Counted from the first letter of the stretch, positions 23,821 through 49,089 are shown. The stretch: 64,000 nt of DNA from Deltaproteobacteria bacterium GWA2_38_16 (GCA_001797335.1 MGPE01000005.1:39929-103928), one strand, 5' to 3'. Translations and numbers: made by a program. The notes: generated by a model from the letters alone, not told the origin.

Positions 23821-24485
23821 AAAAAATAACCATTGTCATAGATGGTCCTGCTGGATCGGGAAAAAGTACCGTCAGTCAAAAATTAGCCAAGAAATTGGGA
23901 TATACATATCTCGATAGTGGGGCACTGTATCGTTCTATAGCCTTAAAGGCGAGCCATAAAAAAGTAAAATCTCAAAACTCACAACAACTCTATCGTTTGT
24001 GTAAAAACAGTATCATTGCTTTTAAAAAAAAAGAGGGGAAGCAGCATGTTTTTTTAGATCACAAGGATATTACTCAAAAAATTAGGACCCGAAAAATAAG
24101 TCTTTTGGCTTCTCTCTATTCTAAACTGCCCGTGGTTCGAAAAGCACTTTTGTATCAGCAACAAAAATTGGGGAAAAAAGGAGGCATGGTTGCAGAAGGG
24201 CGGGATTTAGGAACCGTTGTCTTCCCAAAAGCAGAACTTAAATTTTTTCTTATTGCTTCCTTAAAAGAGCGGGCTAAAAGGCGGTATTTGGAACTAAAAG
24301 AGAAATTTAAAAAAATATCTTTGCGCCATATTGAAAAAGAAATTCAAAAACGAGATAAAGAAGATTCAAAACGGGCCCTAGCCCCCTTAAAAAAAGCCAA
24401 AGATGCTATCTCGTTAGATACAACTTCCCTCACCATTGACCAAGTGGTGTCTCGCATGTATAAAGAATTTTTAAAACGCGTATGA
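23817..24485 (+). CDS. cmk: Cytidylate kinase
   Basis: IDGPAGSGKST, LDSGALYR, EGRDLGTVVFP. Confidence 0.96.
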   Translation: MKKITIVIDGPAGSGKSTVSQKLAKKLGYTYLDSGALYRSIALKASHKKVKSQNSQQLYRLCKNSIIAFKKKEGKQHVFLDHKDITQKIRTRKISLLASLYSKLPVVRKALLYQQQKLGKKGGMVAEGRDLGTVVFPKAELKFFLIASLKERAKRRYLELKEKFKKISLRHIEKEIQKRDKEDSKRALAPLKKAKDAISLDTTSLTIDQVVSRMYKEFLKRV

Positions 24486-25345
24486 AAATCATTGTTCCAC
24501 AAAATGCGGGTGTCTGCTGGGGAGTAGAACGAGCCATTGATATGGCGTATAAAACAGTAGAGACGCCTACTCAGCATCATATTGTAAGTCTGGGCCCTCT
24601 GGTCCATAACCCTGAAGTTGTCGAAGATTTTAAACAAAAAGGGGTAGAAGTTGTGAATAATTTAGAAGAAGCTAAAGAAGGTACTGTGATCTTTCGTTCC
24701 CATGGAGTTCCTGTTCAATATTATAATGATGCAAAATCTAAAAATTTAAAAGTGGTGGATGCTACATGTCCTTTTGTAAAGCGCTCTCAAAATTATGCCA
24801 GGCGTTTAAGTCGACAAGGATATTTTGTGGTGATTGTGGGAGATGAAAAACATCCCGAAATGAAAAGTGTTCGAAGTTTTGTCGAAGGTCCACATATTGT
24901 ATCCATGGACCCCAAAATTGTAGACCAAATTCCTTCAACTCAAAAAGTAGGTATTGTCGCACAAACCACTGTGCCGTTGACGATGTTAGAAGCAATGGTT
25001 TCGAAGGCTCAAAAAAGATTTCCAGAGGTCAAAGTACACGATACCATTTGCGATGCCACCAAGGTCCGTCAAGAAGAAGCCGCCGAAACAGCCAAACAAG
25101 TAGATTGCATGATTATTATTGGGGGGAGAGAAAGCTCTAATACCAAGAAACTCACTAAAATTTGTAAAGAGATTCAGCCCAAAAGCTTTGAAATTGAACA
25201 CGAAAGAGAAATTGATTTTTCTTGGTTTCAAGGAGTGCAAGTGCTGGGGATTACGGCTGGTGCTTCTACGCCTGTGCCTGTTATTCAACGGGTGTGTGAT
25301 TATATTTTGTCTAATCTTTCTTTTAAGGCGTCTAGTTCTTTTTGA
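24482..25345 (+). CDS. ispH: HMBPP reductase
   Basis: AGVCWGVERA, LVHN, RSHGV, DATCPFV, QTT, DTICDATKVRQ, SSNT, TAGASTP. Confidence 0.96.
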   Translation: MKIIVPQNAGVCWGVERAIDMAYKTVETPTQHHIVSLGPLVHNPEVVEDFKQKGVEVVNNLEEAKEGTVIFRSHGVPVQYYNDAKSKNLKVVDATCPFVKRSQNYARRLSRQGYFVVIVGDEKHPEMKSVRSFVEGPHIVSMDPKIVDQIPSTQKVGIVAQTTVPLTMLEAMVSKAQKRFPEVKVHDTICDATKVRQEEAAETAKQVDCMIIIGGRESSNTKKLTKICKEIQPKSFEIEHEREIDFSWFQGVQVLGITAGASTPVPVIQRVCDYILSNLSFKASSSF

Positions 25346-26295
25346 AGGGCGTGGATATCTTTGCTCATTTGAGGAAGTTGTTTCCACAAAGCCATCATTC
25401 TAAAAAATTCTTTAATGGGCATAGCAGGGCTTCCTAAAAGCGTTTCTCCAGGCTCGGTGTTTCTTAAAATACCGGCTTGTGCAGCAATTTTGCTTTGAGG
25501 GGCAATGTCTATATGGTCGGGAATACCGGCTTGCCCGCCGAGCATCGAACCATCTCCAACAGTAGAGCTTCCAGCAATTCCCACTTGGCTGCATAAAATA
25601 CAATGGTTTCCAATGTGAACGTTGTGTCCAATTTGGACCAGATTATCAATTTTGGTTCCCTGTTTAATTCGAGTTTCACCGGTGGTGGCTCTATCGATGG
25701 CTGTATTAGAACCAATTTCTACATCATCTTCGACGATGACTTTTCCAATTTGAGGAATTTTATAATGTTGTTTTCCATCCCACACAAATCCAAATCCATC
25801 ATCACCAATAATAGAGCCTGCATGGAGAATCACTCTTTTCCCAATGTGGGTATTTGGAAATAGGGTGACATGAGGATATAAAATACTGTCTTGATCAATG
25901 CGTGCGTCTTGTCCAATGTAGACTCCTGGATAAATTACCACATTTTTCCCAATTTTAGCACCCCGTCTGACAGTGACAAAAGGATAAATAATGACTGAAG
26001 GATCAATTTGGGTATTTTCTTCTACCCAGGCCCTGGGATCTATTCCTGGTTTTAAGGTTTCAGGTCTTTGAAAGAGTTCTAGAGTTTTTGCAAAAGCCAG
26101 TTTTGGATTAGGGGCGATCAAAACGGTTTTCGACGTTTCTAGGGGATGATCTGAAATTAAAATAGAAGCCGTTGTTTTTTCAAGCTGAGAAGGATGAGTA
26201 ATAAATGTAACCTCTTGAATGGCTTTAATTTCTCCTTCAGCATTTCCAATGAGCTCAGCTTCAAGATGGGTGGCTAATTGTTGAATGGTTAACAT
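25300..26295 (-). CDS. lpxD: UDP-3-O-acylglucosamine N-acyltransferase
   Basis: IGDDGFGF, KIPQIGKV, IDRAT, KIDNLVQIGHNV, SQVGIAGS. Confidence 0.96.
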   Translation of the reverse strand: MLTIQQLATHLEAELIGNAEGEIKAIQEVTFITHPSQLEKTTASILISDHPLETSKTVLIAPNPKLAFAKTLELFQRPETLKPGIDPRAWVEENTQIDPSVIIYPFVTVRRGAKIGKNVVIYPGVYIGQDARIDQDSILYPHVTLFPNTHIGKRVILHAGSIIGDDGFGFVWDGKQHYKIPQIGKVIVEDDVEIGSNTAIDRATTGETRIKQGTKIDNLVQIGHNVHIGNHCILCSQVGIAGSSTVGDGSMLGGQAGIPDHIDIAPQSKIAAQAGILRNTEPGETLLGSPAMPIKEFFRMMALWKQLPQMSKDIHALQKELDALKERLDKI

Positions 26296-37828: not shown

Positions 37829-38589
37829 GAAGTATTTGGGCTATAACAAAGCGGGAGCTTAAGAATTATTTTTTAACCCCCATTGGATATTTGGTTGTCA
37901 TTGTATTTGTAGCCATTATGAGTTGGATGTTTTGTGCAGCCATGATTGATTTTTTAAAGCGTGCCCAAAGCTATATGGCTTTTGGAGGCATGGGAGAGAT
38001 GAATTTAAATGCAATGATTATTCAACCCGTGCTGGGAAACATGGCGGTTATTTTTCTGTTGATGGGGGCTTTGATTACCATGCGTCTTTTGGCAGAAGAA
38101 CGAAAAATGAAAACCATTGAATTGCTTTTGACTTCTCCCATTCATCCTTATCAAATTGTGTTGGGGAAATTCTTTTCTGTGCTTTTACTTCTGATGTTGA
38201 TGCTTTCAGTGACATTTATATATCCTATTGTTTTAATGATTTTTGGAAATCCAGATATTAAACAAATATTAGCAGGATATTTGGGCGTTTTTTTATTTTG
38301 TGCAGCATTTTTATCGTTTGGACTTTTTATTTCTGCTCTCACAGAAAATCAAATTACTGCTGGTGCCATTACGTTTGGATTATTTTTGTTCTTTTGGATT
38401 ATTAGCTGGATTTCTGCCTCCCCAGATTCTTTTATTGGAAAAGTAGTGGCTTATATTTCTATTATTGATCATCTGGCCAATTTTATTCGGGGGCTGATTG
38501 ATACCAAAGATGTAATTTATTATGTGAGCTTTATCTTTTTTGGATTATTTTTAACCCATCAAGCGATTGAATCTCAGCGGTGGAGGTAA
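37825..38589 (+). CDS. ABC-2 permease (GldF-like)
   Basis: KRELKNYFLTPIGY, TMRLLAEERK..TIELLLTSP, TENQI. Confidence 0.9.
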   Translation: MRSIWAITKRELKNYFLTPIGYLVVIVFVAIMSWMFCAAMIDFLKRAQSYMAFGGMGEMNLNAMIIQPVLGNMAVIFLLMGALITMRLLAEERKMKTIELLLTSPIHPYQIVLGKFFSVLLLLMLMLSVTFIYPIVLMIFGNPDIKQILAGYLGVFLFCAAFLSFGLFISALTENQITAGAITFGLFLFFWIISWISASPDSFIGKVVAYISIIDHLANFIRGLIDTKDVIYYVSFIFFGLFLTHQAIESQRWR

Positions 38590-38592
38590 CCT

Positions 38593-39960
38593 ATGAAGTT
38601 TCAACTTCAACGTTCAACATCTTATACACTTAATGCCGTGATCTTAGGATTTGTGGTCTTTGGAATCTTAGCACTCTTAAATTTTATGGGTACTCGGCAT
38701 TACAAGCGGTTTGATTTTACCCAACAAAAACTTTTTTCTTTAGCTCCGCAATCGATCAAAGTAGTTAAAGCGCTAAAGGATGAAGTAACAGTGACTGGAT
38801 TTTTTCAGGCAAAAGAAAAGGCTCAATTTGATGATCTTTTAAATAAATATACCTATTACTCAGATAAGGTGAAAGTGAAATTTGTGGATCCAGATAAAGA
38901 TGTCCAAATTGCTAAAGCATATAATGTTAAAAAATATCAAACCATGATCGTTGAAAAATCAAAACGGGAATCTCGATTTGAGGGATTGTCTGAAGAAAAA
39001 TTAACCAATGCCATTATTAAAGTGGGGAAAGAAAAAACGCCGATCATTTATTTTACGAAAGGGCATGGAGAAAAAGAGATTAAAGATACAGACCGAGAAG
39101 GGTATTCGTTGGTTCAAAATCAATTGAAAGAATCCGGATATGAAGTCAAAGATCTTTTGCTTTTAGAAGTAAATGAAATTCCAAAAGATGCTACAGGCGT
39201 AGTGATTCCTGGCCCTCAAAAACCTTTTTTACCGAAGGAAGCAGATCTTATTTTGGCGTATTTGAAAAAAGGGGGAAGGGCGATTATTTTATTAGATCCT
39301 GAAAGTAAAAAAATAGGATTAGATCCAGTGCTAGCTTCTGTGGGAATCACTGCACAGGAAGATTTGATTATTGATCCGGTGGCCACTCTCTTTGGACAAG
39401 GGGCCGCGACCCCTGTTATCTCTACCTATAGCGGGCATGATATTGTAAAGGAACAAAAAATAGCTTCTTTTTATCCCATGGCACGTTCTTTAACGATTGC
39501 TCCAACGCTTCCTAATAAAAATATCAAGGTAGAATCCATTGGAAAAACTTCTACCAATAGCTGGGGGGAAGTAGGTTCTGTGAAGTCTGGAAAAGTTAAA
39601 TTTGATGAAGGGCAAGATCATAAAGGCCCTTTAAATTTAGCCGTTGCAGCGTGGGGAAATTGGGATGGAAGTTCCAAAAAAGAAGATGAAATGAGGCTTG
39701 TGGTAATGGGAGATTCTGATTTTGCCAATAACCGATCTTTTGAATTTGCGGGAAATGGAAATCTATTTTTAAATTCTATTGCCTGGATGATTGCCGATGA
39801 AACCGCCATTTCGATTCGACCCAATCAGGCAAGCCAGGGGAGGTTGATGCTGACTCCTTGGCAGGTCCGAACTATTTTTATTGTGACAATTATTTTAATT
39901 CCTTTGATTGTACTAGGATCTGGGACGGTCGTGTGGACATTACGGAGAAGGGTTGCATGA
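38593..39960 (+). CDS. GldG-like ABC transporter auxiliary component
   Basis: RFDFT..FSL, FVDPD, YFTKGHGE, GDSDF, NLFLNSIAW, C-terminal TM helix. Confidence 0.88.
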   Translation: MKFQLQRSTSYTLNAVILGFVVFGILALLNFMGTRHYKRFDFTQQKLFSLAPQSIKVVKALKDEVTVTGFFQAKEKAQFDDLLNKYTYYSDKVKVKFVDPDKDVQIAKAYNVKKYQTMIVEKSKRESRFEGLSEEKLTNAIIKVGKEKTPIIYFTKGHGEKEIKDTDREGYSLVQNQLKESGYEVKDLLLLEVNEIPKDATGVVIPGPQKPFLPKEADLILAYLKKGGRAIILLDPESKKIGLDPVLASVGITAQEDLIIDPVATLFGQGAATPVISTYSGHDIVKEQKIASFYPMARSLTIAPTLPNKNIKVESIGKTSTNSWGEVGSVKSGKVKFDEGQDHKGPLNLAVAAWGNWDGSSKKEDEMRLVVMGDSDFANNRSFEFAGNGNLFLNSIAWMIADETAISIRPNQASQGRLMLTPWQVRTIFIVTIILIPLIVLGSGTVVWTLRRRVA

Positions 39961-40961
39961 ATAAATTTAAAGTAACGTGGATTTTAGGGGGGCTTTTCTT
40001 AATTCTGATAGCGTATGTCTATTTTATTGAAATTAAAGGGGGCGAAAAGCGTAAAGTTGAAAAAGAAAAAGAAGAAAAAGTGTGGGTGTTTGATAAAGAC
40101 AAAGTGGAATCCGTGAGTCTTAAAACAGAAAAAGGAAAATTTACCGCTAAACGCACAGGTGAAAAAGAATGGCTTTTAGAAGAACCGTTAAAAGTAAAAG
40201 CTGATAAATTGGTATGGAATAATATTGTAGATTCTCTCTATGATCTTAAATTTTCTCGGGTGGTATCAGAAAAAGCCGATGATTTAGTTCCTTACGGATT
40301 AAAAGATTCAAAGTATATAGTTGAAATAACGATTTCTGGAGAAAAAGAAAAAAAGATTTTAAGTATTGGGGATGATAATCCTGTGGGAGATTCTGTGTTT
40401 GTAACCGTTGGACCAAGCCAAAAAGTGGTTTTAGTGCCCCAGTTTATTTCCTCTACATTAAATAAAGACATAAAAGATTTTCGGGAGAAAAAGCTCTTTA
40501 CATTTGATGAGACAAAAACTCAAGAAGTGACTCTTGAAAAAGCCAAAGAGCCAAAATTAGTCTTAAAGAAAGAGCCAGGAAAAGAAATAGACAAATGGTT
40601 TATTCTTTCAACTCCTAAAAAAGAAGAGGCAGATGCTTCTAAAGTGACAGAACTTTTAAATACATTAAATTTCTTAGAAGTAAAAACCTTTGAAGATGAA
40701 TCCCCAAAAGAGTTAGCCAAATATGAGCTTAATGCCCCTCAACTTAAAGTTACTATTCGAGATGAAAAAACAGCCCAACTACAATTGCTTTTTGGCAAGA
40801 AAACCAATGACGGTGTTTTTGTATCTAAAGCCTCTGAAAAACCCGTTTATCAGGTGAATGCCACTATCTTAGATCGATTGTCTTTAGATCCTAAAAAATT
40901 CACCAAGCTCCCCGAACCTAAAAAAGAAAATATAGAAGCCCTGCCAGAGCAAAAGAAATAA
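39957..40961 (+). CDS. DUF4340 domain protein
   Basis: N-terminal TM, two repeats (W..EP..KAD; YGL/YEL..P); follows gldG. Confidence 0.85.
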   Translation: MNKFKVTWILGGLFLILIAYVYFIEIKGGEKRKVEKEKEEKVWVFDKDKVESVSLKTEKGKFTAKRTGEKEWLLEEPLKVKADKLVWNNIVDSLYDLKFSRVVSEKADDLVPYGLKDSKYIVEITISGEKEKKILSIGDDNPVGDSVFVTVGPSQKVVLVPQFISSTLNKDIKDFREKKLFTFDETKTQEVTLEKAKEPKLVLKKEPGKEIDKWFILSTPKKEEADASKVTELLNTLNFLEVKTFEDESPKELAKYELNAPQLKVTIRDEKTAQLQLLFGKKTNDGVFVSKASEKPVYQVNATILDRLSLDPKKFTKLPEPKKENIEALPEQKK

Positions 40962-40969
40962 CGGCCAGC
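40919..40969 (+). repeat. Left direct repeat of cassette (copy of 46073-46123)
   Basis: 41-bp perfect core AGAAAATATAGAAGCCCTGCCAGAGCAAAAGAAATAACGGC (40925-40965); 51 bp with 2 mismatches. Confidence 0.93.
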
Positions 40970-40981
40970 TGTGTTTGTCTC

Positions 40982-41019
40982 GTCATTGCGAGGAGCCTGC
41001 AAGGCGACGTGGCAACCTC
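40982..41019 (+). repeat. GTCAT-tagged palindromic repeat (long form)
   Basis: GTCATTGCGAGGAGCCTGCAAGGCGACGTGGCAACCTC. Confidence 0.8.
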
Positions 41020-41092
41020 AGCAAGTTCAGGAGAATATGTGCCTCCTTAGTTTAAAAATTTCATGGAATCAGATGTTGGATATTCTGATGAT

Positions 41093-42897
<1,805 letters not shown>

Positions 42898-42960
42898 TGT
42901 ATACTACTTATCGGAAAACCAGGTGGTATCCTGAAGTTTTGTAACTGACCTGCCCCCGAT

Positions 42961-42999
42961 GAGATTGCCACACCTCATTTCATTCGGCTCGCAATGACA
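42961..42999 (-). repeat. GTCAT-tagged palindromic repeat (long form)
   Basis: Reverse complement TGTCATTGCGAGCCGAATGAAATGAGGTGTGGCAATCTC. Confidence 0.8.
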
Positions 43000-43008
43000 G
43001 GTGCTTTA

Positions 43009-43761
43009 TCACCGAAGAAATAAGCTCAAGGCCTCAGTGAGAAACTGATTTATTTTAAAATGATTTTTAAGATAAAAATGCGCATGAGAATTATTCTTTT
43101 TTCCTATTCGTATTTTTAAAATTGAATGAGTAGGTAAACAAAAGACATCTTCATCGGTTTGATCATCCCCAACATAGATAGCGCGTTTCATTTTAAGTTG
43201 ATGCATGGCAATTTTTAATGAAGTTCCTTTATTGAATTTAGAAAAAGGTAATATATTGATCACTGATTTTCCAAAAACTATCTTGGGTGTTGGATATAAT
43301 TTTGAAAGATGACGTAGGAGTAAGGCCTTTGTGTTTACTTTCGCTCGTACATTACGATAGTGAATGGAGAGCGAATATTTTTTATCTTCTAATTCAATGC
43401 CTTGAATATCAGGCGTGATATTTAAAAGCTGTTTTTTCCATTTTTTACATATTTTATAAAAATTTATTTTTAATTTTTTTTCTAACTTTAGCCCTTCTAG
43501 ACCATGATTCCCAATAAACAGTGTAGGGGTAAAAGAGCACAGGGTTTTTAGATCAGTAATGCTTCTACCTGAAACAATAACAATGGGGGTGTATAGATAT
43601 AATGTTTCTAAAAGTTTTTGTGTTTTGAGAGGAAGTCTTGCTTCAGAAATTTTTGACGTTAAAGGAGTAAGGGTCCCATCATAATCAAAAGCAAATAGAG
43701 TTTGAGGATGGCAGTATGTTTTAAGTTTTTGAAGTCCTGCTTGAGTGAAAAAGGGCTTCAT
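43009..43761 (-). CDS. otsB: Trehalose-6-phosphate phosphatase
   Basis: AFDYDGTL, IVSGR, GNHGLE, EDKKYSLSIHYR, NKG, YVGDDQTDEDVF. Confidence 0.92.
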   Translation of the reverse strand: MKPFFTQAGLQKLKTYCHPQTLFAFDYDGTLTPLTSKISEARLPLKTQKLLETLYLYTPIVIVSGRSITDLKTLCSFTPTLFIGNHGLEGLKLEKKLKINFYKICKKWKKQLLNITPDIQGIELEDKKYSLSIHYRNVRAKVNTKALLLRHLSKLYPTPKIVFGKSVINILPFSKFNKGTSLKIAMHQLKMKRAIYVGDDQTDEDVFCLPTHSILKIRIGKKNNSHAHFYLKNHFKINQFLTEALSLFLR

Positions 43762-46018
43762 CAATATTGGCTTTCCAAAATTCTTTTTCTCCTCGGCGAA
43801 TAGCCATGGTGGCGAGCCTTTGTAAAATGCGATTCCGTTGACGAACGCGGGATGCATCAATAAGCATTCTACCGGCCCATCGAAATACGTTATATTCTTG
43901 TACGTACGATCTCATGCTACGCATTCTTTCTCTTTGTTCAAAAGGATGCATCGAAAGTGCTGCATGAAGCGCATCTGCTGACTCATCAATATCATAGGGA
44001 TTGACAATAATGGCCTCCGGAAGTTCTCGAGAAGCTCCTGTAAAGTGACTTAAAATAAGTACCCCTTGTTCGTCATTTCTGGCAGAAATAAATTCCTTTG
44101 CGACAAGGTTCATTCCATCATGAAGGGAGTTCACAAAACAAAGATCGCTCCCTCTATAATATTCAAAAATTTGGGAAGGTTCATGATGTTCTATTTTTAA
44201 GATAATAGGAGGGTTTTGAGAACTATTGAATTTTTTATTAATGCGTTCTGATGCTTTTTTGACATCTTCTTGAAGGTGGCGATAGGTTTCAATTCTAGAT
44301 CTGGAAGGAGCTGCAATTTGAATAAATGAAAATTTTCCAAGCCACTCGGGATGTTGCTCTAAAAGCCTTTCTACAGCTAAGAATCTTTCAATAATTCCTT
44401 TGGTATAATCTAAACGTTCAATACCTAAGCCCACTAAGGTTTTATTGGAAAGGCCATTGAGAGAGCGAATTTTATGACAGCATTCTTGAATAGGTTTTTG
44501 TAAATCTAACCAATGGGGAGGCCATTCAATAGAAATAGGATAGGCTTTAACTGCGGTCATTTTTTCTAAGAATGAAATAGTAGAGTGTTCCTTATCAATA
44601 CGACATTCCAGGAACCGGTCGATGGTTTCAATAAAGTTGTTACAATGAAACTGAATGTGAAAACCAACAATAGTACTTCCCAATAGCCCTTCTAAAATTT
44701 CTTCTTTCCAGGGACAAATGCCAAAAGCTTCTGGATTAGGCCATGGGATATGCCAAAAAGTAATAATGATTGCATCTGGGAGTTTATCTCGAATGAGCTT
44801 TGGCAGAAGAGCAAAATGGTAATCTTGAATTAAAATAATTGGGTCTTTGGATTTAACTTCTGACAATACAACTTCAGAAAATTTTTTATTTACACGCACA
44901 TATTGTTCCCAATCCTGAGAACGAAAAGTGGGGCGGGTATGAGCGATATGACATAAAGGCCAAAGACCCTCATTCGAAAATCCATAATAATATCCTTCTT
45001 CCTCTTCTTTTGTTAGCCACACACGTCGTAAGATATATTTAGGATCGTCTAGAGGAACTTTAAGATGATTCTTTTCATCCACAAACTCCCGATCAGCATT
45101 TCCATTTCCATGAGCAATCCAGGTGCCAGAGCATGTTTTCATCACAGGCTCTAATGCGGTTACCAAGCCACTGGCAGGATGTTGAACTTCAATATTTCCC
45201 TCTTTTGTGCGATTGTGAATATAGGGTTCTCGATTTGAAACAATGATGATTTCATCTCCTGAAAGTTCTTTATTTAAAATTTCTTTTAAAACTTTGGGTG
45301 TCCAACTGATTAAACTTTCGTCCCGAATGCGCTGATTGGTTTGAAGTTCTTTGATGAGAGCTCTTAAATCTTTTACCAAGGGCTTTACTTCTGAGGAAGT
45401 CATTTCAAAAGAAGGTTTAAAAATTCCTTCTCCTGTGAGAAGCGTTCTCATGGCTCCAATCCAGCCTCTCCAGCTCCATTGCGCAATCATAACGGTTAAA
45501 ATCGAAATAATAATTCCAAGGAGAATAAAAAATATACGCACATACCATTTGGTTTCTTGACTTCTTTTTTCAATAAAGCTCATGTCATGAATTAAAAAAA
45601 TATGTCCTAAGAGCCTATCTTTTACCATTAAAAGATTTTTAGTAATGTGAATATCCCCGCTTTTTAATTTCATTACCTTTGATGGTTTGATTTCAAATTC
45701 AGGATTAAGGCATTTAATTTCTTTTGGAAAAAGTTCCGTTTTATATTGAAGTATTCCGTCGCTGCTACAATAGCCTGCAGCCATAAGACGATCATCTAGA
45801 GTAATTTTTGTAAGTAAAGATACAATTTTTGATTTTTCTCCCAGGGCTAGTCGTCTTGCCAAAGAGTCGTGGACAGCATTAGAAATTAATTTTCCTCTCA
45901 GATCCAAGTCTCTTGTAAACCAATGAAAGGTAAGAGTATCCACCAGTGGAGTAATACTTAAAGCAATAAGAAATAAAACCACCAGCAATGGTACGATGAA
46001 TCGTAAGGACAATTTCAT
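43721..46018 (-). CDS. otsA: Trehalose-6-phosphate synthase with N-terminal TM-periplasmic-TM extension
   Basis: IVSNREP, ASGLVTAL, YYYGFSNEGLWPLCH, QDYH, FWHIPWP, RLDYTKG, DGMNLVAKE, LSHFTGA. Confidence 0.93.
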   Translation of the reverse strand: MKLSLRFIVPLLVVLFLIALSITPLVDTLTFHWFTRDLDLRGKLISNAVHDSLARRLALGEKSKIVSLLTKITLDDRLMAAGYCSSDGILQYKTELFPKEIKCLNPEFEIKPSKVMKLKSGDIHITKNLLMVKDRLLGHIFLIHDMSFIEKRSQETKWYVRIFFILLGIIISILTVMIAQWSWRGWIGAMRTLLTGEGIFKPSFEMTSSEVKPLVKDLRALIKELQTNQRIRDESLISWTPKVLKEILNKELSGDEIIIVSNREPYIHNRTKEGNIEVQHPASGLVTALEPVMKTCSGTWIAHGNGNADREFVDEKNHLKVPLDDPKYILRRVWLTKEEEEGYYYGFSNEGLWPLCHIAHTRPTFRSQDWEQYVRVNKKFSEVVLSEVKSKDPIILIQDYHFALLPKLIRDKLPDAIIITFWHIPWPNPEAFGICPWKEEILEGLLGSTIVGFHIQFHCNNFIETIDRFLECRIDKEHSTISFLEKMTAVKAYPISIEWPPHWLDLQKPIQECCHKIRSLNGLSNKTLVGLGIERLDYTKGIIERFLAVERLLEQHPEWLGKFSFIQIAAPSRSRIETYRHLQEDVKKASERINKKFNSSQNPPIILKIEHHEPSQIFEYYRGSDLCFVNSLHDGMNLVAKEFISARNDEQGVLILSHFTGASRELPEAIIVNPYDIDESADALHAALSMHPFEQRERMRSMRSYVQEYNVFRWAGRMLIDASRVRQRNRILQRLATMAIRRGEKEFWKANIDEALFHSSRTSKT

Positions 46019-46071
46019 ATCATTATCATTCTATATAGATGATCTAAGATGGGGCAAGGCAAATTTTCAAA

Positions 46072-46944
46072 TTAAAAGAGAAAATATAGAAGCCCTGCCA
46101 GAGCAAAAGAAATAACGGCAAGCGTTCTCAATTCTCCATTATCGTAGCAGCGCTTTAAAGAAAAGGGCCAGGATTGAAAATGACTATCCCGAAAGGGAGT
46201 GAGGTGAGGAATAAATTTTGGGACATGAGACATATAGTATAAAAAGGGATTTCCAAAATGTTCTTTTAAGGATTCTTCTTCTTTTTGAACCGTATCTTGA
46301 TAAATCAAAAAAAAGAGTAAAAGTAGGGGAATAAAAAGCCAATAGGTTTGTCCCAAAATTAAAAATCCAACTCCAATACTAAAACTTCCTATATATAACG
46401 GATTTCGGGTAAAAGCATAAGGACCAGAAATGGTCAACTCTTTGGTTTTAATAATAGTTCCTGCTGCCCAGAGTCTAATCAATTCTCCTAAAATAATAAA
46501 AAGAATGCCAATGGCTAAAGATGTGGGTGTAGCCTTAAAAAGCCATAAATACAAAAGCGCCAAAGGCCAGGCAATAAAAAGCCTTAGTTTTTTAGGATTT
46601 TTAGAAGAAACATAGACTTTGAGCCAAACAGAAAGAGGATGAATCCGAATAGAGTCTGAAATATGATGGGAAGTGTTTGGATATATTTCTGAAACCGCGT
46701 TTTTTAATCCATTCATTCCGTCAGAAGTAATACATTTTATGTCAGATTCTTTGATGCCTGTTTTTTTAAGATCGGCTAAAAATAATTTCCAGTCTCGTTC
46801 ATTTTCATGTGAAGGAAGCATGTAATGGATAAGTTTTTTAGAACCGTTACTATTTACACCATAAGCAACTAAAATGGCTCTCGTTTTTTTCCAAAAAATA
46901 GGGTGATGAAGAAGGAGCCCGTCTAGAATAATTTCAGAGTACAT
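46072..46944 (-). CDS. IS256-transposase-fragment fused to isoprenylcysteine/phospholipid methyltransferase-like membrane domain
   Basis: N-term: IILDG..AILVAYGV..G..W..FL..L..GI..ITSDG..GLKNAV..YP. C-term: GELIRLWAAG..K..LTISGPYAFTRNPLYIGS..EE..L..FG..Y..VPKFIP. Confidence 0.8.
   Translation of the reverse strand: MYSEIILDGLLLHHPIFWKKTRAILVAYGVNSNGSKKLIHYMLPSHENERDWKLFLADLKKTGIKESDIKCITSDGMNGLKNAVSEIYPNTSHHISDSIRIHPLSVWLKVYVSSKNPKKLRLFIAWPLALLYLWLFKATPTSLAIGILFIILGELIRLWAAGTIIKTKELTISGPYAFTRNPLYIGSFSIGVGFLILGQTYWLFIPLLLLFFLIYQDTVQKEEESLKEHFGNPFLYYMSHVPKFIPHLTPFRDSHFQSWPFSLKRCYDNGELRTLAVISFALAGLLYFLF
46073..46123 (+). repeat. Right direct repeat of cassette
   Basis: Matches 40919-40969 (perfect core 46079-46119). 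Confidence 0.93.
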
Positions 46945-46951
46945 GGGTGGG

Positions 46952-47278
46952 TTAAGCTTTAAGAATTTTTCCGAGCTTTAAAGCTAAGCCTAAATCCCCT
47001 TTGACTTTAAGTTTTCCGGTCATGAAAGCAAGTTGAGGATTTAGGGTTCCTTGAACAAGATTTACTAAGTCTTTATCTGCCATGGTAATGGTACAGTGGG
47101 GATTATCGGTAGATCCAGATTTCACTTCACTTTTTTGATCGGTACAATCAATTGACCAGGTGCCTCCCTCAATACCGGTAATATTAAATAAATAAATGGC
47201 ATTAATTTCTTTTCCGAGATCTGGATTTTCTTGAAACCGACGAGCAATTTTTTCTTCAAAAATGATTTTTGGATTCAT
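46952..47278 (-). CDS. SCP2 sterol/lipid-binding domain protein
   Basis: YLFNITG..GGTWSID, LNPQLAFMTGKLKVKGDLGLALKL. Confidence 0.92.
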   Translation of the reverse strand: MNPKIIFEEKIARRFQENPDLGKEINAIYLFNITGIEGGTWSIDCTDQKSEVKSGSTDNPHCTITMADKDLVNLVQGTLNPQLAFMTGKLKVKGDLGLALKLGKILKA

Positions 47279-47295
47279 GAGTGTAAGGCCTCCTC

Positions 47296-49089
47296 TTATT
47301 CGTACATGGATTGGAGAACATCTTTATATTTTTCGCTGCAATATTTTCGTTTTACCTTTAGAGAGGGAGTCAATTCTCCTGTTTCAATGGTAAAGTCATT
47401 TTTTAAGATTTTAAATTTTTTAATGGTTTCAAAACTGGGAAGGTTTTTATTGGTTTCAGAAATAACGGTAGAAATGAGTGTTTCAACTTTAGGGTGGTGG
47501 TAGAGTTCATTTTTTAAAGAGGGCAGATGTTCATGTTGGGCAAATTTTACCATTTCTTCATCATTTAACGTGATGAGAGCGGTTAAATAATTTTTTTTGT
47601 CTCCATACACCATGGCTTGGCTAATATAGCGATTGGTTTTTAAAAGGTTTTCAATTTTTTGAGGAGCTACATTTTTTCCGCCCGATGTTACAATAATATC
47701 TTTTTTGCGGTCGGTGATTTTAAGATGGCCCTTTTCATTGATATAGCCAATATCTCCGGTGCAAAACCAACCCTCTTTAAACACTTCCTGGGTGGCTTCG
47801 GGATTTTTATAATATTCTTTAAAAATTTTAGAACTTTTTACCAGGATTTCTCCATCTGGGGCGATTTTAAGTTGAACTTCTCCTAAAACGGGACCGACAG
47901 TTCCAAATTCATAATCTGTGTCTTTATTCACACAGATAGCCGCTGTGGTTTCGGTTAACCCGTAGCCTTCTAAAATCAAAAATCCAGCAGTATGGAAAAA
48001 TTCTGCAATTTCCCGACTGAGAGGAGCTCCTCCTGAAACAAAATAACGGATGCGACCACCAAATTTTTGTTTTAATTTTTGAAAAACAAGCTTTGTGGCT
48101 AACGCGTATTTTAGAGAAAGAAGGGGGGTAAGGCTTTGTCCGCCTTGTAATCTTTGACTGACTTCTTTTCCGACATTCATGCTCCAAAAAAAGATTTTCT
48201 TTTTTAACGAAGATCCATCGGCCACTTGAGAAAGGATTTTATTATATACTTTTTCATAAATTCGAGGGACGGCAAACATAAAAGTGGGGCGAATTTCGGA
48301 CAAATTATCGACAAGTTGTGGGATGCCTTCTGCAAACGCATGTGTCCACCCAAAAGCCAATCCACAGTAGAGTTCTACTCGAGCAAAAATGTGAGCAAAC
48401 GGTAAAAAACTTAAAATCATGTCTTTTTCTGTGAGAGAGAGGGTGTTGACAATATCAGAGAGCTCCGAAATAAAATTAGCATGTGTTAAGACGACCCCTT
48501 TTGGGACGCCGGTGGTCCCCGACGTATAGACAATGGTTACAGGATCTTGGGGGTTTGATTTTTGAAGGAGCTCATCAAATTTTTGTGGATTTTGAGTTTT
48601 ATGATGAATCCCTTTTTGACAAAATTCTTCTAAAGGAAGAGCGGGAGCCAATTCTTTGGGATCTTTATTGTGTCTAAAAATAACAATGGTTTTTAAGTGG
48701 GGGAGATTTTTTTGAACGGATAGCACTTTTTCAAGTTGGAGTTCATTTTCGACAAAAATAGCTTTGGCTTGAGAATTTTGTAAAATATATTCTACTTCAG
48801 AAGTAATGTTGGATTGATAAATAGGAACCGTGATGGCTCCAGCGCTTAAAATAGCTAAATCACAAAAGGCCCATTCCGCCGAGGATTGTGAAAGAAGTGC
48901 TACTCTATCTCCTCGTTCAACGCCACTCTCGATTAAGGCAAAACAAATTTCTTGAACGAAATTATAATATTCTTGGAAGGTGATGTCTTCCCAGGTACTA
49001 TTCACTTTTCGTTTAAATGCAATATGGCCAGCACTTTGTGCGATGCGATTTCGAAATGTGCTCGTCAATGTGTGAGAAATGACTGTCAT
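47296..49089 (-). CDS. Long-chain fatty acid--CoA ligase
   Basis: IVYTSGTTGVPKG, SGGAPL, EGYGLTET, GWFCTGDIG, ITDRKKD, ELTPSLKVKR. Confidence 0.93.
   Translation of the reverse strand: MTVISHTLTSTFRNRIAQSAGHIAFKRKVNSTWEDITFQEYYNFVQEICFALIESGVERGDRVALLSQSSAEWAFCDLAILSAGAITVPIYQSNITSEVEYILQNSQAKAIFVENELQLEKVLSVQKNLPHLKTIVIFRHNKDPKELAPALPLEEFCQKGIHHKTQNPQKFDELLQKSNPQDPVTIVYTSGTTGVPKGVVLTHANFISELSDIVNTLSLTEKDMILSFLPFAHIFARVELYCGLAFGWTHAFAEGIPQLVDNLSEIRPTFMFAVPRIYEKVYNKILSQVADGSSLKKKIFFWSMNVGKEVSQRLQGGQSLTPLLSLKYALATKLVFQKLKQKFGGRIRYFVSGGAPLSREIAEFFHTAGFLILEGYGLTETTAAICVNKDTDYEFGTVGPVLGEVQLKIAPDGEILVKSSKIFKEYYKNPEATQEVFKEGWFCTGDIGYINEKGHLKITDRKKDIIVTSGGKNVAPQKIENLLKTNRYISQAMVYGDKKNYLTALITLNDEEMVKFAQHEHLPSLKNELYHHPKVETLISTVISETNKNLPSFETIKKFKILKNDFTIETGELTPSLKVKRKYCSEKYKDVLQSMYE

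Follow-up and report, generated by a model that had tools for sequence, protein, structure and literature searches.

How did an operon of predicted trehalose-synthesis and sensor genes come to lie between two convergent genes, each of which runs to a complete 3' end inside one copy of a 51-nucleotide (nt) direct repeat? The locus was analysed within a 64,000-nt stretch of the genome of Deltaproteobacteria bacterium GWA2_38_16 (G000), referred to here as the window, and positions are counted from its first letter (Table 1). Comparison of sequences within the window showed that 40919-40969 and 46073-46123 are direct repeats identical at 49 of 51 positions, with a perfect 41-nt core (40925-40965 and 46079-46119), and these figures agree with those of an earlier note on this DNA, which had reported 41 bp perfect and 51 bp with two mismatches. 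The mismatches, A at 40924 versus G at 46078 and C at 40966 versus A at 46120, flank the core, lie no more than 6 nt from the repeat ends and are silent in the frame of the membrane methyltransferase (MT) gene (CTT/CTC and CTG/CTT, Leu); the first silent change is backed by the unchanged MT protein obtained on collapsing the repeat, and the second was read off the repeat sequences. The copies are spaced 5,154 nt apart, with 5,103 bp between them. This pair was alone among repeats of at least 30 nt in the window in having high identity, three other families being 63 to 74% identical, and exactly two copies were found in the whole 1,999,042-bp (2.0 Mb) genome, which excludes a chance origin of the pair.

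Table 1. Positions of the repeat copies, the block between them and the neighboring genes, in window coordinates.
Feature	Position	Strand	Description
DUF4340 gene	39957..40961	+	334 aa from recorded ATG
Left repeat copy	40919..40969		DUF4340 residues KKENIEALPEQKK and TAA stop; on the minus strand a pseudo-3' end of MT with in-frame TAG at 40918-40920
Block (putative insert)	40970..46072	- (all genes)	5,103 bp; otsA, otsB, hybrid sensor kinase; no mobility gene
Small dispersed hairpin-type element (GTCATTGCGAG...GGCAA)	40982..41031	+	12 nt inside left end of block
Hybrid sensor histidine kinase	41093..42897	-	TM, PAS, HisKA, HATPase, receiver
(GA)17 tract in kinase gene	42330..42363		Read as (Ser-Leu)n; site of frameshift
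Second copy of hairpin-type element family, inverted	42949..42998	-	Between kinase gene and otsB
otsB, predicted trehalose-phosphatase	43009..43860	-	64-67% identical to relatives' copies
otsA, predicted trehalose-6-phosphate synthase	43721..46018	-	GT20 domain at residues 257-720; 250-residue N-terminal extension
MT	46072..46944	-	290 aa; Mutator-transposase fragment at residues 20-93, PEMT/ICMT domain at 150-232 (Pfam)
Right repeat copy	46073..46123		Native MT 3' end (...LAVISFALAGLLYFLF, stop 46072-46074)
SCP2 gene	46952..47278	-	Conserved right-hand anchor of variable slot; MT-SCP2-acyl-CoA-ligase-like-kinase synteny in relatives

The left copy contains the final 13 codons of the DUF4340 gene and its TAA stop at 40959-40961, and the right copy contains the final 16 codons of the minus-strand MT gene. 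The codon and stop positions bear out the earlier assignment of the left copy to the DUF4340 3' end (+) and the right copy to the MT 3' end (-). All four stops that had been claimed for the two genes in the two copies were located: the plus strand has TAA at 40959 and at 46113, and the minus strand has TAG at 40918-40920 and TAA at 46072-46074. Two gene labels of the earlier note did not hold: the ORF named plainly "methyltransferase" combines a Mutator-transposase fragment and a PEMT/ICMT domain in one fusion, and "HK" stands for a single hybrid kinase gene that a frameshift in a (GA)17 tract interrupts. The DUF4340 gene comes last in an operon conserved among relatives (ABC-ATPase / ABC-2 permease / GldG-like / DUF4340), and the tail of its product past KK(E) is encoded by the repeat. 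Since the homologues of six relatives have KKEEKK in common and then diverge, the 11-residue non-conserved tail in G000 can be attributed to the repeat. The MT fusion is likewise conserved in relatives, its Mutator fragment spanning just profile positions 179-250 of 379, and the G000 protein lacks the final 35 to 50 residues present in six fusion-type homologues. Its helix LAVISFALAGLLYF, which lies in the right copy, aligns with the matching helix of nine homologues, and the right copy is therefore native MT sequence. When the block was removed in silico and the repeat collapsed to one copy, the DUF4340 and MT proteins were identical to the present ones and their genes overlapped by 44 nt; a tail-to-tail overlap had been predicted. 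The parallel drawn with another gene pair in the window was also correct, ispH (LYTB; 24482-25345, +) and an lpxD-like gene (25300-26295, -) overlapping by 46 nt.

The block carries a predicted OtsA/OtsB trehalose pathway, to judge from a GT20 synthase gene (PF00982, E 6.5e-123) adjacent to and co-oriented with a trehalose-phosphatase gene (PF02358, E 4.3e-23). The otsA product is 85 to 90% identical to that of three relatives. The family has no orthologue of the kinase, the best matches of 34 to 39% being in the paralogue range too. In G000 the kinase gene is broken by the frameshift into ORFs at 42199-42897 and 41093-42136; an in-frame 600-aa form is present in another assembly, and the length of the (GA)17 tract varies among assemblies so as to place the gene in all three frames. 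PADLOC, run on the block ORFs and MT, gave a weak generic ATPase-domain match for the kinase and none for the other three block ORFs or MT. A comparison of composition inside and outside the block, which had been proposed as a check, gave no independent sign of acquisition: among 771 genome windows the block is ordinary, at the 15th percentile for GC (0.362) and the 50th for tetranucleotide distance.

Genes that could have moved the block were sought. Pfam searches of all block ORFs (40970-46072) detected no recombinase or transposase, and genome-wide profile maps placed every recombinase of the genome (two Xer-sized tyrosine and three serine recombinases) on other contigs, in agreement with the earlier description of the block as recombinase-free. 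Profile searches of the genome found no IS4-type transposase, full Mutator transposase, Ku or non-Xer-sized tyrosine recombinase; PF01609 had 0 matches genome-wide, and PF00872 matched a 74-residue fragment in MT only. That conserved, domesticated fragment is the sole mobile-element trace beside the block, and no inverted repeat joining the two block ends was found.

The locus was compared with its counterparts in the family. Counting G000, otsA is present in four of nine family genomes, and the three relatives that carry otsAB have it at three other loci. Two genes that are neighbors on G000 contig C8 have orthologues that flank otsA in G003, and otsA occupies two further contexts in G001 and G006; DNA homology to these copies is limited to window positions from about 43027 to 46046. 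The slot after DUF4340 was empty or held different genes in the six relatives examined: in G004, DUF4340 and SCP2 converge directly; G007 has an HNH gene bounded by a 38-nt repeat of its own (79%); G005 has a 1958-aa ORF and MT; and G003 and G006 have other genes. Because otsAB sits elsewhere in relatives and the slot is variable, this is not the native site of the cargo. Retention of the cargo at the site by all relatives, which had been named as grounds for rejecting an insertion, was thus not observed. As to an empty site, the cargo is missing from the slot in relatives, but DUF4340 abuts MT in none of the eight family relatives. No empty allele with the DUF4340/MT overlap was seen in relatives, metagenome contigs or read sets, and a metagenome scan for a closer relative yielded only homologues of at most 41% identity.

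Segments of similar anatomy recur in this genome. About nine further isolated direct repeats, 34 to 115 nt long, bound segments of 0.5 to 28 kb in G000, with toxin-antitoxin pairs, a peptidase and a 24-kb polysaccharide cluster among the cargo. With the otsAB locus counted, a repeat copy lies no more than 10 nt from the stop codon of an ORF of at least 100 aa at 7 of 10 loci, compared to 6% of random windows. Empty sites were seen in relatives for two sister loci of G000. The P-type-ATPase and MgtE genes are convergent, abutting and cargo-free in all eight of eight relatives, and in G000 this locus holds two cassettes and three repeat copies, the middle copy having 6 nt of extra flank in common with the right copy and 3 nt with the left. 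At another sister locus the cargo is absent from all three relatives that have the PNP gene. Mismatches lie no more than 6 nt from an end in two of five other imperfect repeat pairs or arrays. The repeats have no common motif, the 10 segments no conserved ends, and no recombinase was found in or beside any of them.

Starting from what was directly observed (the repeat, the intact genes, the lack of a recombinase, otsAB elsewhere in relatives and the recurrence of the scar in the genome), we consider it probable that the locus arose by a one-off insertion with long target duplication and not through a self-mobile element. The earlier note had proposed such an insertion of the HK-otsB-otsA block, and the lack of a recombinase, the location of the cargo in relatives and the intact genes left by the collapse all support it, and the collapse supports the view that the long duplication left both neighbors intact. 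Before the event, we infer, the DUF4340 gene (+) and the MT gene (-) overlapped tail to tail by 44 nt. DNA of the same lineage, 5.1 kb long with the otsA-otsB-hybrid-kinase operon, would then have been joined into the overlap by host break-repair or replication functions, about 51 nt of target ending up on each side. The simplest route that we infer would begin with two strand breaks separated by about 51 nt, after which the incoming DNA would be joined to the staggered ends and the gaps filled in by synthesis. The duplication would have covered the entire overlap, each gene retaining a complete 3' end and stop, and for this reason the insertion would have been able to persist. Two later substitutions would have set the copies apart. 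At its length, the perfect core would permit RecA-type deletion or amplification of the block from time to time, and excision of the block between the repeats is plausible.

The mismatches can also be read in another way. One near each end of a perfect core is what a crossover between two polymorphisms predicts, as in a Campbell-type integration, in which a circle with a 51-nt copy of the MT 3' end (excised, for example, from the filled site of another strain) would have recombined in the 41-nt core, homologously or through a trans-acting site-specific system, so that attL and attR differ at donor/recipient polymorphisms. The silence of both mismatches in the MT frame, the end-proximal mismatches in two of five other imperfect repeats and the flank sharing in the ATPase/MgtE array, which is the attL-attP-attR pattern of tandem integrations, are in keeping with this. 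Recombination between slightly different copies thus fits the end-proximal mismatches and the array at least as well as a staggered break. However, silent differences are equally expected under purifying selection after simple duplication, the 10 segments lack both a nearby recombinase and a common repeat motif, and the locus-specific homology of the first circle would be unexplained, so that a duplication-making event would still be required. A circle junction is unlisted in four runs, though their contigs are unable to show one. We give Campbell-type integration a real but minor chance. It is improbable that there was no insertion. On that reading the operon would be long resident, and a local templated patch or gene conversion, with the purine-rich microhomology AAAAAGAAAA / AAAAGAGAAAA as its seed, would have copied the nearby MT 3' end onto the end of the DUF4340 gene to give the left repeat copy. 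The KKEEKK ending of DUF4340 homologues, whose AAAAAAGAAGA-type coding sequence resembles the first 10 nt of the repeat, would suit such a patch, as would the native composition of the block and the unobserved empty allele. Yet otsAB lies elsewhere in all three relatives that have it, the kinase has no family orthologue, nine other repeat-bounded segments have the same anatomy, two of them with empty sites in relatives, and there is no known bacterial route for a 41-nt patch copied from 5 kb away.

Assembly records bear on a further possibility, that the chromosome is empty (left flank, one repeat, right flank) and that the 5.15-kb block, together with one repeat copy, exists as a separate circle or at another place. 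The run contigs were assembled on 31-letter words (which we take to mean k = 31), and with a 41-nt core such contigs would look alike whether the block is integrated or the site is empty and a circle exists beside it; in X19, one contig indeed passes from 40731-40924 to 46079-46303, skipping 5,154 nt. Every 31-mer of this bridging contig also exists in the integrated form, however, and it therefore proves nothing. All four half-junctions were reproduced without differences in independent runs (X4 records 18, 20 and 21; X19 record 1), and each mismatch was linked to its own flank in independent-run contigs, which upholds the earlier argument from the mismatches against a simple assembly duplication. 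Coverage, named beforehand as a possible sign of misassembly, gave no such sign, insert and flank contigs being equal in depth in X4 (5.3-8.6 versus 5.8-6.7), X9 (3.7-5.5 versus 4.8-5.6) and X19 (2.9-5.9 versus 3.2-3.8). There are records from 12 to 21 contigs for each of four proteins (MT, DUF4340, kinase and otsA), the longest contig in common being 313,412 nt, and one ENA contig of 11,526 nt is given for a variant MT and one of this length for a variant otsA, presumably the same one. Such an artefact is accordingly quite improbable. A decayed integrative island or non-autonomous transposon, mobilised by a lost or trans-acting integrase or by a long-duplication transposase of the IS1634/IS1549 type, is very improbable. 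Integrase-mediated islands classically leave direct repeats that copy a gene 3' end, and the adjacent MT bears the Mutator-transposase fragment. That fragment predates the insertion, however, because it is fused to MT in G005, G003 and four metagenome proteins without the block; in addition, the block has no terminal inverted repeats, the 10 segments have no conserved ends, and the genome has neither PF01609, a full PF00872 transposase nor a non-Xer-sized tyrosine recombinase.

Insertion with long target duplication was reportedly described for restriction-modification gene units by Nobusato et al. (2000, Gene 259:99), and the otsAB locus fits this kind of event already in the literature. Such units were also treated by Furuta, Abe and Kobayashi (2010, NAR 38:2428; PMC2853133), whose criteria are direct repeats of more than 30 bp, an insert of less than 20 kb, a repeat unique in the genome, no mobile element in or beside the insert, and a related genome with a one-copy empty site; restriction and modification cargo was demanded by their screen rather than by the mechanism. 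The otsAB block has a unique repeat longer than 30 bp, is shorter than 20 kb and has no mobile element, and its cargo is otsA, otsB and a hybrid kinase. The cases are alike in being few-kb blocks without a mobility gene, bounded by unique target-copy repeats of more than 30 bp that often touch gene 3' ends. Repeat lengths differ from case to case, and the overlap with gene ends amounts to 15 and 2 bp in the two 46-bp Haemophilus influenzae cases; the paper also alludes to "the transposon of Mycoplasma" (PMC2853133). The otsAB case differs in that its cargo is a trehalose-synthesis and sensor operon instead of a restriction-modification unit, its empty site is deduced whereas theirs was seen in a sister strain, and its duplication covers the 44-nt overlap of two convergent genes, rescuing both. 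The idea of these authors that DNA cutting by the cargo itself drives insertion (PMC2853133) cannot apply to the otsAB block, because its cargo is not restriction-modification.

Other known systems resemble the locus less completely. In integrase-mediated islands and prophages at gene or tRNA 3' ends, repeats likewise rebuild the 3' end of the target gene, and tandem arrays have a middle attP-like copy, as at the ATPase/MgtE locus, but no integrase lies in or beside the otsAB block or the nine others, and their repeats have no shared core. Elements of the IS1634 and IS1549 type make long target duplications of variable length, tens to hundreds of bp, and have an IS4-type transposase and terminal inverted repeats, whereas the block has neither inverted repeats nor a transposase and the genome no PF01609. 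Integron gene cassettes are similar as small, promoter-poor cassettes, often toxin-antitoxin pairs, that are separated by repeats in arrays; unlike attC palindromes, however, the G000 repeats copy the local target, and there is no IntI or common site.

A wider reading can be offered only tentatively, and we think it rather doubtful. In this Bdellovibrionota-like groundwater bacterium, most flexible genes (toxin-antitoxin pairs, the peptidase, the 24-kb polysaccharide cluster and the trehalose/sensor operon) may enter by one host-driven, sequence-independent route that copies 34 to 115 nt of target and favors gene 3' ends, especially overlapping convergent ones; recombination within the repeats would then carry the repeat-bounded cassettes from strain to strain and stack them, as the attL-attP-attR-like triple array suggests. 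If true, insertion with long target duplication would be a general mode of cassette mobility and not a peculiarity of restriction-modification genes. The scar has been in the literature since 2000, mostly tied to restriction-modification genes, and here the cargo has no DNA-cutting activity. One 2-Mb genome holds ten sharp-bounded segments, including a stacked array with an empty site in eight relatives, and the population was found in about 20 public groundwater and soil runs. It is a good natural system for studying the origin of long target duplications, repeat-mediated excision and stacking, and the preference for gene 3' ends. For annotation, the insertion accounts for otsAB at a different locus in each relative and for a pseudo-3' end of one gene serving as the tail of another.

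The two copies of the repeat were identical at 49 of 51 positions with a perfect core of 41 nt, as the earlier note had described, and the sequence occurred exactly twice in the 1,999,042-bp genome (19 contigs); the three other repeat families of at least 30 nt in the 64-kb window were 63 to 74% identical. The right copy encodes the helix LAVISFALAGLLYF of the membrane methyltransferase (MT), which aligned with the corresponding helix in all nine homologues compared. In the same alignment, the three stand-alone homologues stopped near the C terminus of the MT, and the six fusion-type homologues extended 35 to 50 residues further; the full-length strain variants of the MT (five of five) had the same C-terminal end. 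The DUF4340 proteins of six relatives had KKEEKK in common, followed by unrelated tails of 0 to 13 residues, and that of the source genome ended in ...PEPKKENIEALPEQKK, so its last 11 residues and stop derive from the repeat. The tail encoded in this way is the MT sequence read backwards. These comparisons indicate that the right copy is the native copy, the MT 3' end, and that the repeat supplied the DUF4340 tail. When the block was deleted in silico, the DUF4340 and MT proteins were both unchanged and their genes overlapped by 44 nt, in agreement with the earlier prediction that collapsing the copies yields two tail-to-tail overlapping genes. The ispH and lpxD-like genes, the other such pair claimed for the window, were indeed convergent with a 46-nt overlap, which shows that convergent overlaps are normal here. 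Neither repeat mismatch changes an MT residue, as the computed deletion confirmed for the first and as read from the sequence for the second.

Features of the locus, of the slot 3' of DUF4340 in family relatives (genomes G003 to G007), and of other repeat-bounded segments of the source genome. Bare numbers are window positions, C numbers are contigs of the source genome, on which the window is C5:39929-103928, and records are contigs of metagenome runs X4 and X19 aligned to the window.
Feature	Location	Strand	Size or repeat	Contents or remark
ABC ATPase/ABC-2 permease/GldG-like auxiliary protein/DUF4340 operon	left of repeat
DUF4340 protein on record	start 39957		334 aa
Left repeat copy	40919-40969
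Block	40970-46072
Hybrid sensor kinase gene	41093-42897	-		two ORFs joined across (GA)17 tract
(GA)17 tract	42330-42363
otsB	in 40970-46072	-		trehalose-phosphatase
otsA	in 40970-46072	-		GT20, E 6.5e-123
Right repeat copy	46073-46123
MT ORF	46072-46944	-	290 aa	right of repeat
SCP2, AMP-binding enzyme, Ser/Thr kinase	right of repeat
Small element, window copy	40982-41031	+
Small element, window copy	42949-42998	-
Small element, window copy	~33432	-
Small element, further copies	C5:139839, C6:197000, C6:207653, C15:57293
X4 record 18				core to block left end
X4 record 20				block right end to core, carries right-copy G
X4 record 21				core to MT flank
X19 record 1				DUF4340 flank to core
G004 slot				DUF4340 directly convergent with SCP2, <60 nt apart, without MT
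G007 slot	locus L026, 8653-10081		38-nt, 79% direct repeat of its own	129-aa ORF and 392-aa HNH-endonuclease gene within the repeat
G005 slot	locus L028, 1132-7008			1958-aa ORF with no Pfam match and MT, convergent, 7-nt overlap
G003 and G006 slots				other genes
Segment	C6:135294/137151		48 nt; 1.9 kb	two unknown ORFs 3' of PNP_UDP_1 gene end
Segment	C15:26642/27178		44 of 45 nt; 0.5 kb	Xre-type HTH gene after thiolase stop
Segment	C5:199675/200747		34 nt	MNT-HEPN pair
Segment	C6:41511/42538		45 of 47 nt	two unknown ORFs
Segment	C2:229985/232401/233188		three copies, 39-45 nt	S8 peptidase gene; Gp49(HigB-like)-HTH_37 pair
Segment	C6:166618/167770		57 of 58 nt
Segment	C5:108380/109839		86 of 87 nt
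Segment	C2:309121/333035		~105 nt, 3 mismatches; 23.9 kb	glycosyltransferases, flippase, radical-SAM enzyme, after response-regulator gene
Segment	C1:71682/99306		63 nt + ~50 nt at 94%; 27.6 kb	to 99368; loci L074, L075

The MT ORF fuses an N-terminal Mutator-transposase fragment (74 residues, profile positions 179 to 250 of 379, the region of the MLPSHENERDW motif) to a PEMT/ICMT membrane methyltransferase. This arrangement was also present in G005 (50% identity), G003 (37 to 42%), and four metagenome proteins (46 to 51%), and this recurrence indicates that the fragment is an old domesticated piece, not the agent of the insertion.

OtsA and OtsB convert UDP-glucose and glucose-6-phosphate to trehalose, and the co-oriented hybrid kinase encoded in the same block may couple the trehalose operon to a signal. 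The two frames of the kinase gene join at the (GA)17 tract, which is read as (Ser-Leu)n in the PAS region. Other assemblies contained an in-frame 600-aa kinase and three further variants of tract length or frame; because all three frames were found among the assemblies, the tract is a candidate slipped-strand on/off switch of the kinase, the alternative being sequencing noise in a dinucleotide run. The kinase had no orthologue in the family genomes, where the best matches (34 to 39%) were in the paralogue range, and its only close relative was an 88% identical protein on a 1.2-kb metagenome contig. A role of the cargo as a defence system was set aside, since PADLOC returned only a weak generic ATPase-domain match, to the kinase. 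The comparison of composition inside and outside the block proposed in the earlier note was carried out for GC content (0.362 for the block versus 0.378) and for tetranucleotides (50th percentile of 771 windows); both were ordinary for the genome and gave no compositional sign of foreign DNA.

The otsA gene was present in four of the nine family genomes, including the source genome. In G003, otsAB is flanked by orthologues of two neighbouring genes of contig C8 in the source genome, and G001 and G006 carry it in two further contexts. Compared with the relatives, otsA was 85 to 90% identical and otsB 64 to 67%, similar to flanking genes (60 to 75%), and these values point to vertical inheritance of the pair with a change of location rather than to a recent import. 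No repeats of at least 20 nt were found at the block ends around otsAB in G003, G001, and G006; relocation there either made no such scar or the scar decayed. The slot 3' of DUF4340 had different contents in every relative examined, so the outcome that the earlier note had named as adverse, all relatives keeping the cargo, did not hold, with otsAB lying elsewhere. The repeat around the HNH-endonuclease gene of G007 may be a scar of this type from an earlier event. The adjacency of MT and SCP2 was conserved in G003 and G005. DUF4340 abutted the MT, as at an empty site, in none of the relatives, and for this reason the ancestral overlap at this locus is one that we infer. A scan of metagenome contigs with the MT gave four loci, all at most 41% identical, a scan of genome contigs with DUF4340 gave no closer relatives, and the source genome was the only species representative of its genus among the relatives listed.

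A small hairpin-type element, GTCATTGCGAG...GGCAATCTCA, was present in about eight copies in the genome, and a related element, GTCATCCCGAGG...GGGATCTCA, lies after the DUF4340 stop in G006. The depth of the GTCATTGCGAG element in metagenome contigs reached about 600, compared to about 7 for the surroundings, indicating that it is common to many organisms. A literature search with GTCATTGCGAG gave no relevant paper, the matches being, by title and abstract, unrelated human, plant, and pathogen studies. An Rfam search of 40500-46500 at E values up to 1 gave no match for either the repeat or the element. Predicted folds of both were no better than those of shuffled sequences (z of -0.6 to 0.0), with the sole exception of the right copy on the MT strand (z of -2.3), for which 5 of 200 shuffles were equally stable.

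The stretch containing the repeat occurred, always as contigs, in some 20 public runs of groundwater and soil that belong to 11 studies. The contigs of four of these runs (X4, X9, X19, and X20; Logan) were aligned to 38000-49000, and all half-junctions were reproduced without difference by independent contigs. Such contigs were presumably built from 31-letter words (k = 31). One X19 contig (record 1; 419 nt, depth 3.74) joined 40924 to 46079 and skipped 5,154 nt, but it was not accepted as an empty allele because the 41-nt core is longer than the 31-letter word and all words of the joined form are also present in the integrated form. A circle junction did not appear among the contigs of the four runs, although contigs of this type would not reveal one. 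Depths in X19 were 2.9 to 5.9 for insert contigs and 3.2 to 3.8 for flank contigs. The MT, DUF4340, kinase, and OtsA proteins were each recorded from 12 to 21 contigs, and the longest contig, of 313,412 nt, was shared by all four, which favours the integrated arrangement in other assemblies.

A genome scan for exact direct repeats on the same contig with unrelated flanks yielded ten loci, including the otsAB block. In 7 of the 10, a repeat copy lay no more than 10 nt from the stop codon of an ORF of at least 100 aa, compared to 6% of random 45-nt windows. A repeat pair on contig C9 was rejected: it is a leader that paralogous genes for secreted proteins have in common, and its flanks are 82 to 96% similar. 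No motif common to the 10 repeats or to the cassette ends was seen by eye. The earlier note had described the cassette as lacking a recombinase, and none was found near the block or any other repeat-bounded segment. At C2:229985-233232 (locus L069), repeats separate a P-type-ATPase 3' end, the S8 peptidase gene, the Gp49/HTH_37 toxin-antitoxin pair, and an MgtE 3' end, in that order, and the middle copy has extra flank in common with both outer copies in an attL-attP-attR-like manner. The P-type-ATPase and MgtE genes were convergent and abutting without cargo in all eight family relatives, and the three of eight relatives with the gene of the PNP locus all lacked the cargo there. Events in which DNA entered the ends of convergent genes and the target was copied thus recurred in this genome, and the cargo-free sister sites support this. 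A likeness of the TTTAGA extra flank of the ATPase/MgtE repeat copies to the native sequence of relative G002 was discarded as too short. At C2:309121-333108 (loci L072 and L073), the ~105-nt repeat is a duplicate of the last part (3' end) of a response-regulator gene of OmpR type, and the cargo is a polysaccharide-synthesis cluster with several GT4 glycosyltransferases, a flippase, and a B12/radical-SAM enzyme; the 10 ORFs scanned in this segment included no recombinase.

The results support the earlier proposal that the otsAB/kinase block was inserted with a long target duplication that left the flanking genes intact, and the event was probably a host-mediated illegitimate insertion in which ~51 nt of target were duplicated. 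Most simply pictured, two strand breaks 51 nt apart in the target would be followed by joining of incoming DNA to the broken ends and then by fill-in synthesis, and the duplication would span the entire 44-nt overlap because of selection. Ku-dependent end joining was rejected as the mechanism because the genome lacks a Ku gene; an IS4-type transposase and a full Mutator transposase were likewise not found in it, and its recombinases are two Xer-sized tyrosine and three serine enzymes. That the block is a decayed island or transposon is scarcely credible.

The main rival is a Campbell-like event, in which a circular block that already bore a copy of the MT end, not quite identical to the resident one, recombined with the resident site. 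Mismatches that are silent and lie close to the repeat ends speak for it, as does the resemblance of the triple array to attL-attP-attR, but it requires some recombinase or recombination at very short homology and still needs a prior event to make the duplication, and we regard it as unlikely. A local templated patch, with no insertion at all, is very unlikely. An empty chromosome and a separate circle mis-joined by the assembly is a highly improbable arrangement, against which stands the match of insert depth to flank depth in X19. RecA-type deletion or amplification of the block through the 41-nt perfect core would be plausible.

Furuta, Abe and Kobayashi (2010) are said to have followed earlier work by Nobusato et al. 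2000 in their definition of such events. In the former (PMC2853133), an "insertion with long target duplication" is an insert of <20 kb that is flanked by repeats of >30 bp and free of other mobile elements, and whose site in a sister genome has a single repeat copy. The examples given there include two duplications of 46 bp in Haemophilus influenzae, both overlapping the 3' ends of genes, and others of up to ~400 bp in Helicobacter pylori; the paper treats the mechanism as unknown and proposes DNA breakage by the restriction enzyme. The otsAB block agrees with this description in insert size, repeat length, and freedom from other mobile elements. Its cargo differs, consisting of otsA, otsB, and the hybrid kinase where theirs consisted of RM genes, and a sister genome with an empty site was not seen at this locus. 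The block is assigned to this known class, and the main points of interest are that a single genome has ten such segments and that the cargo is not an RM system.
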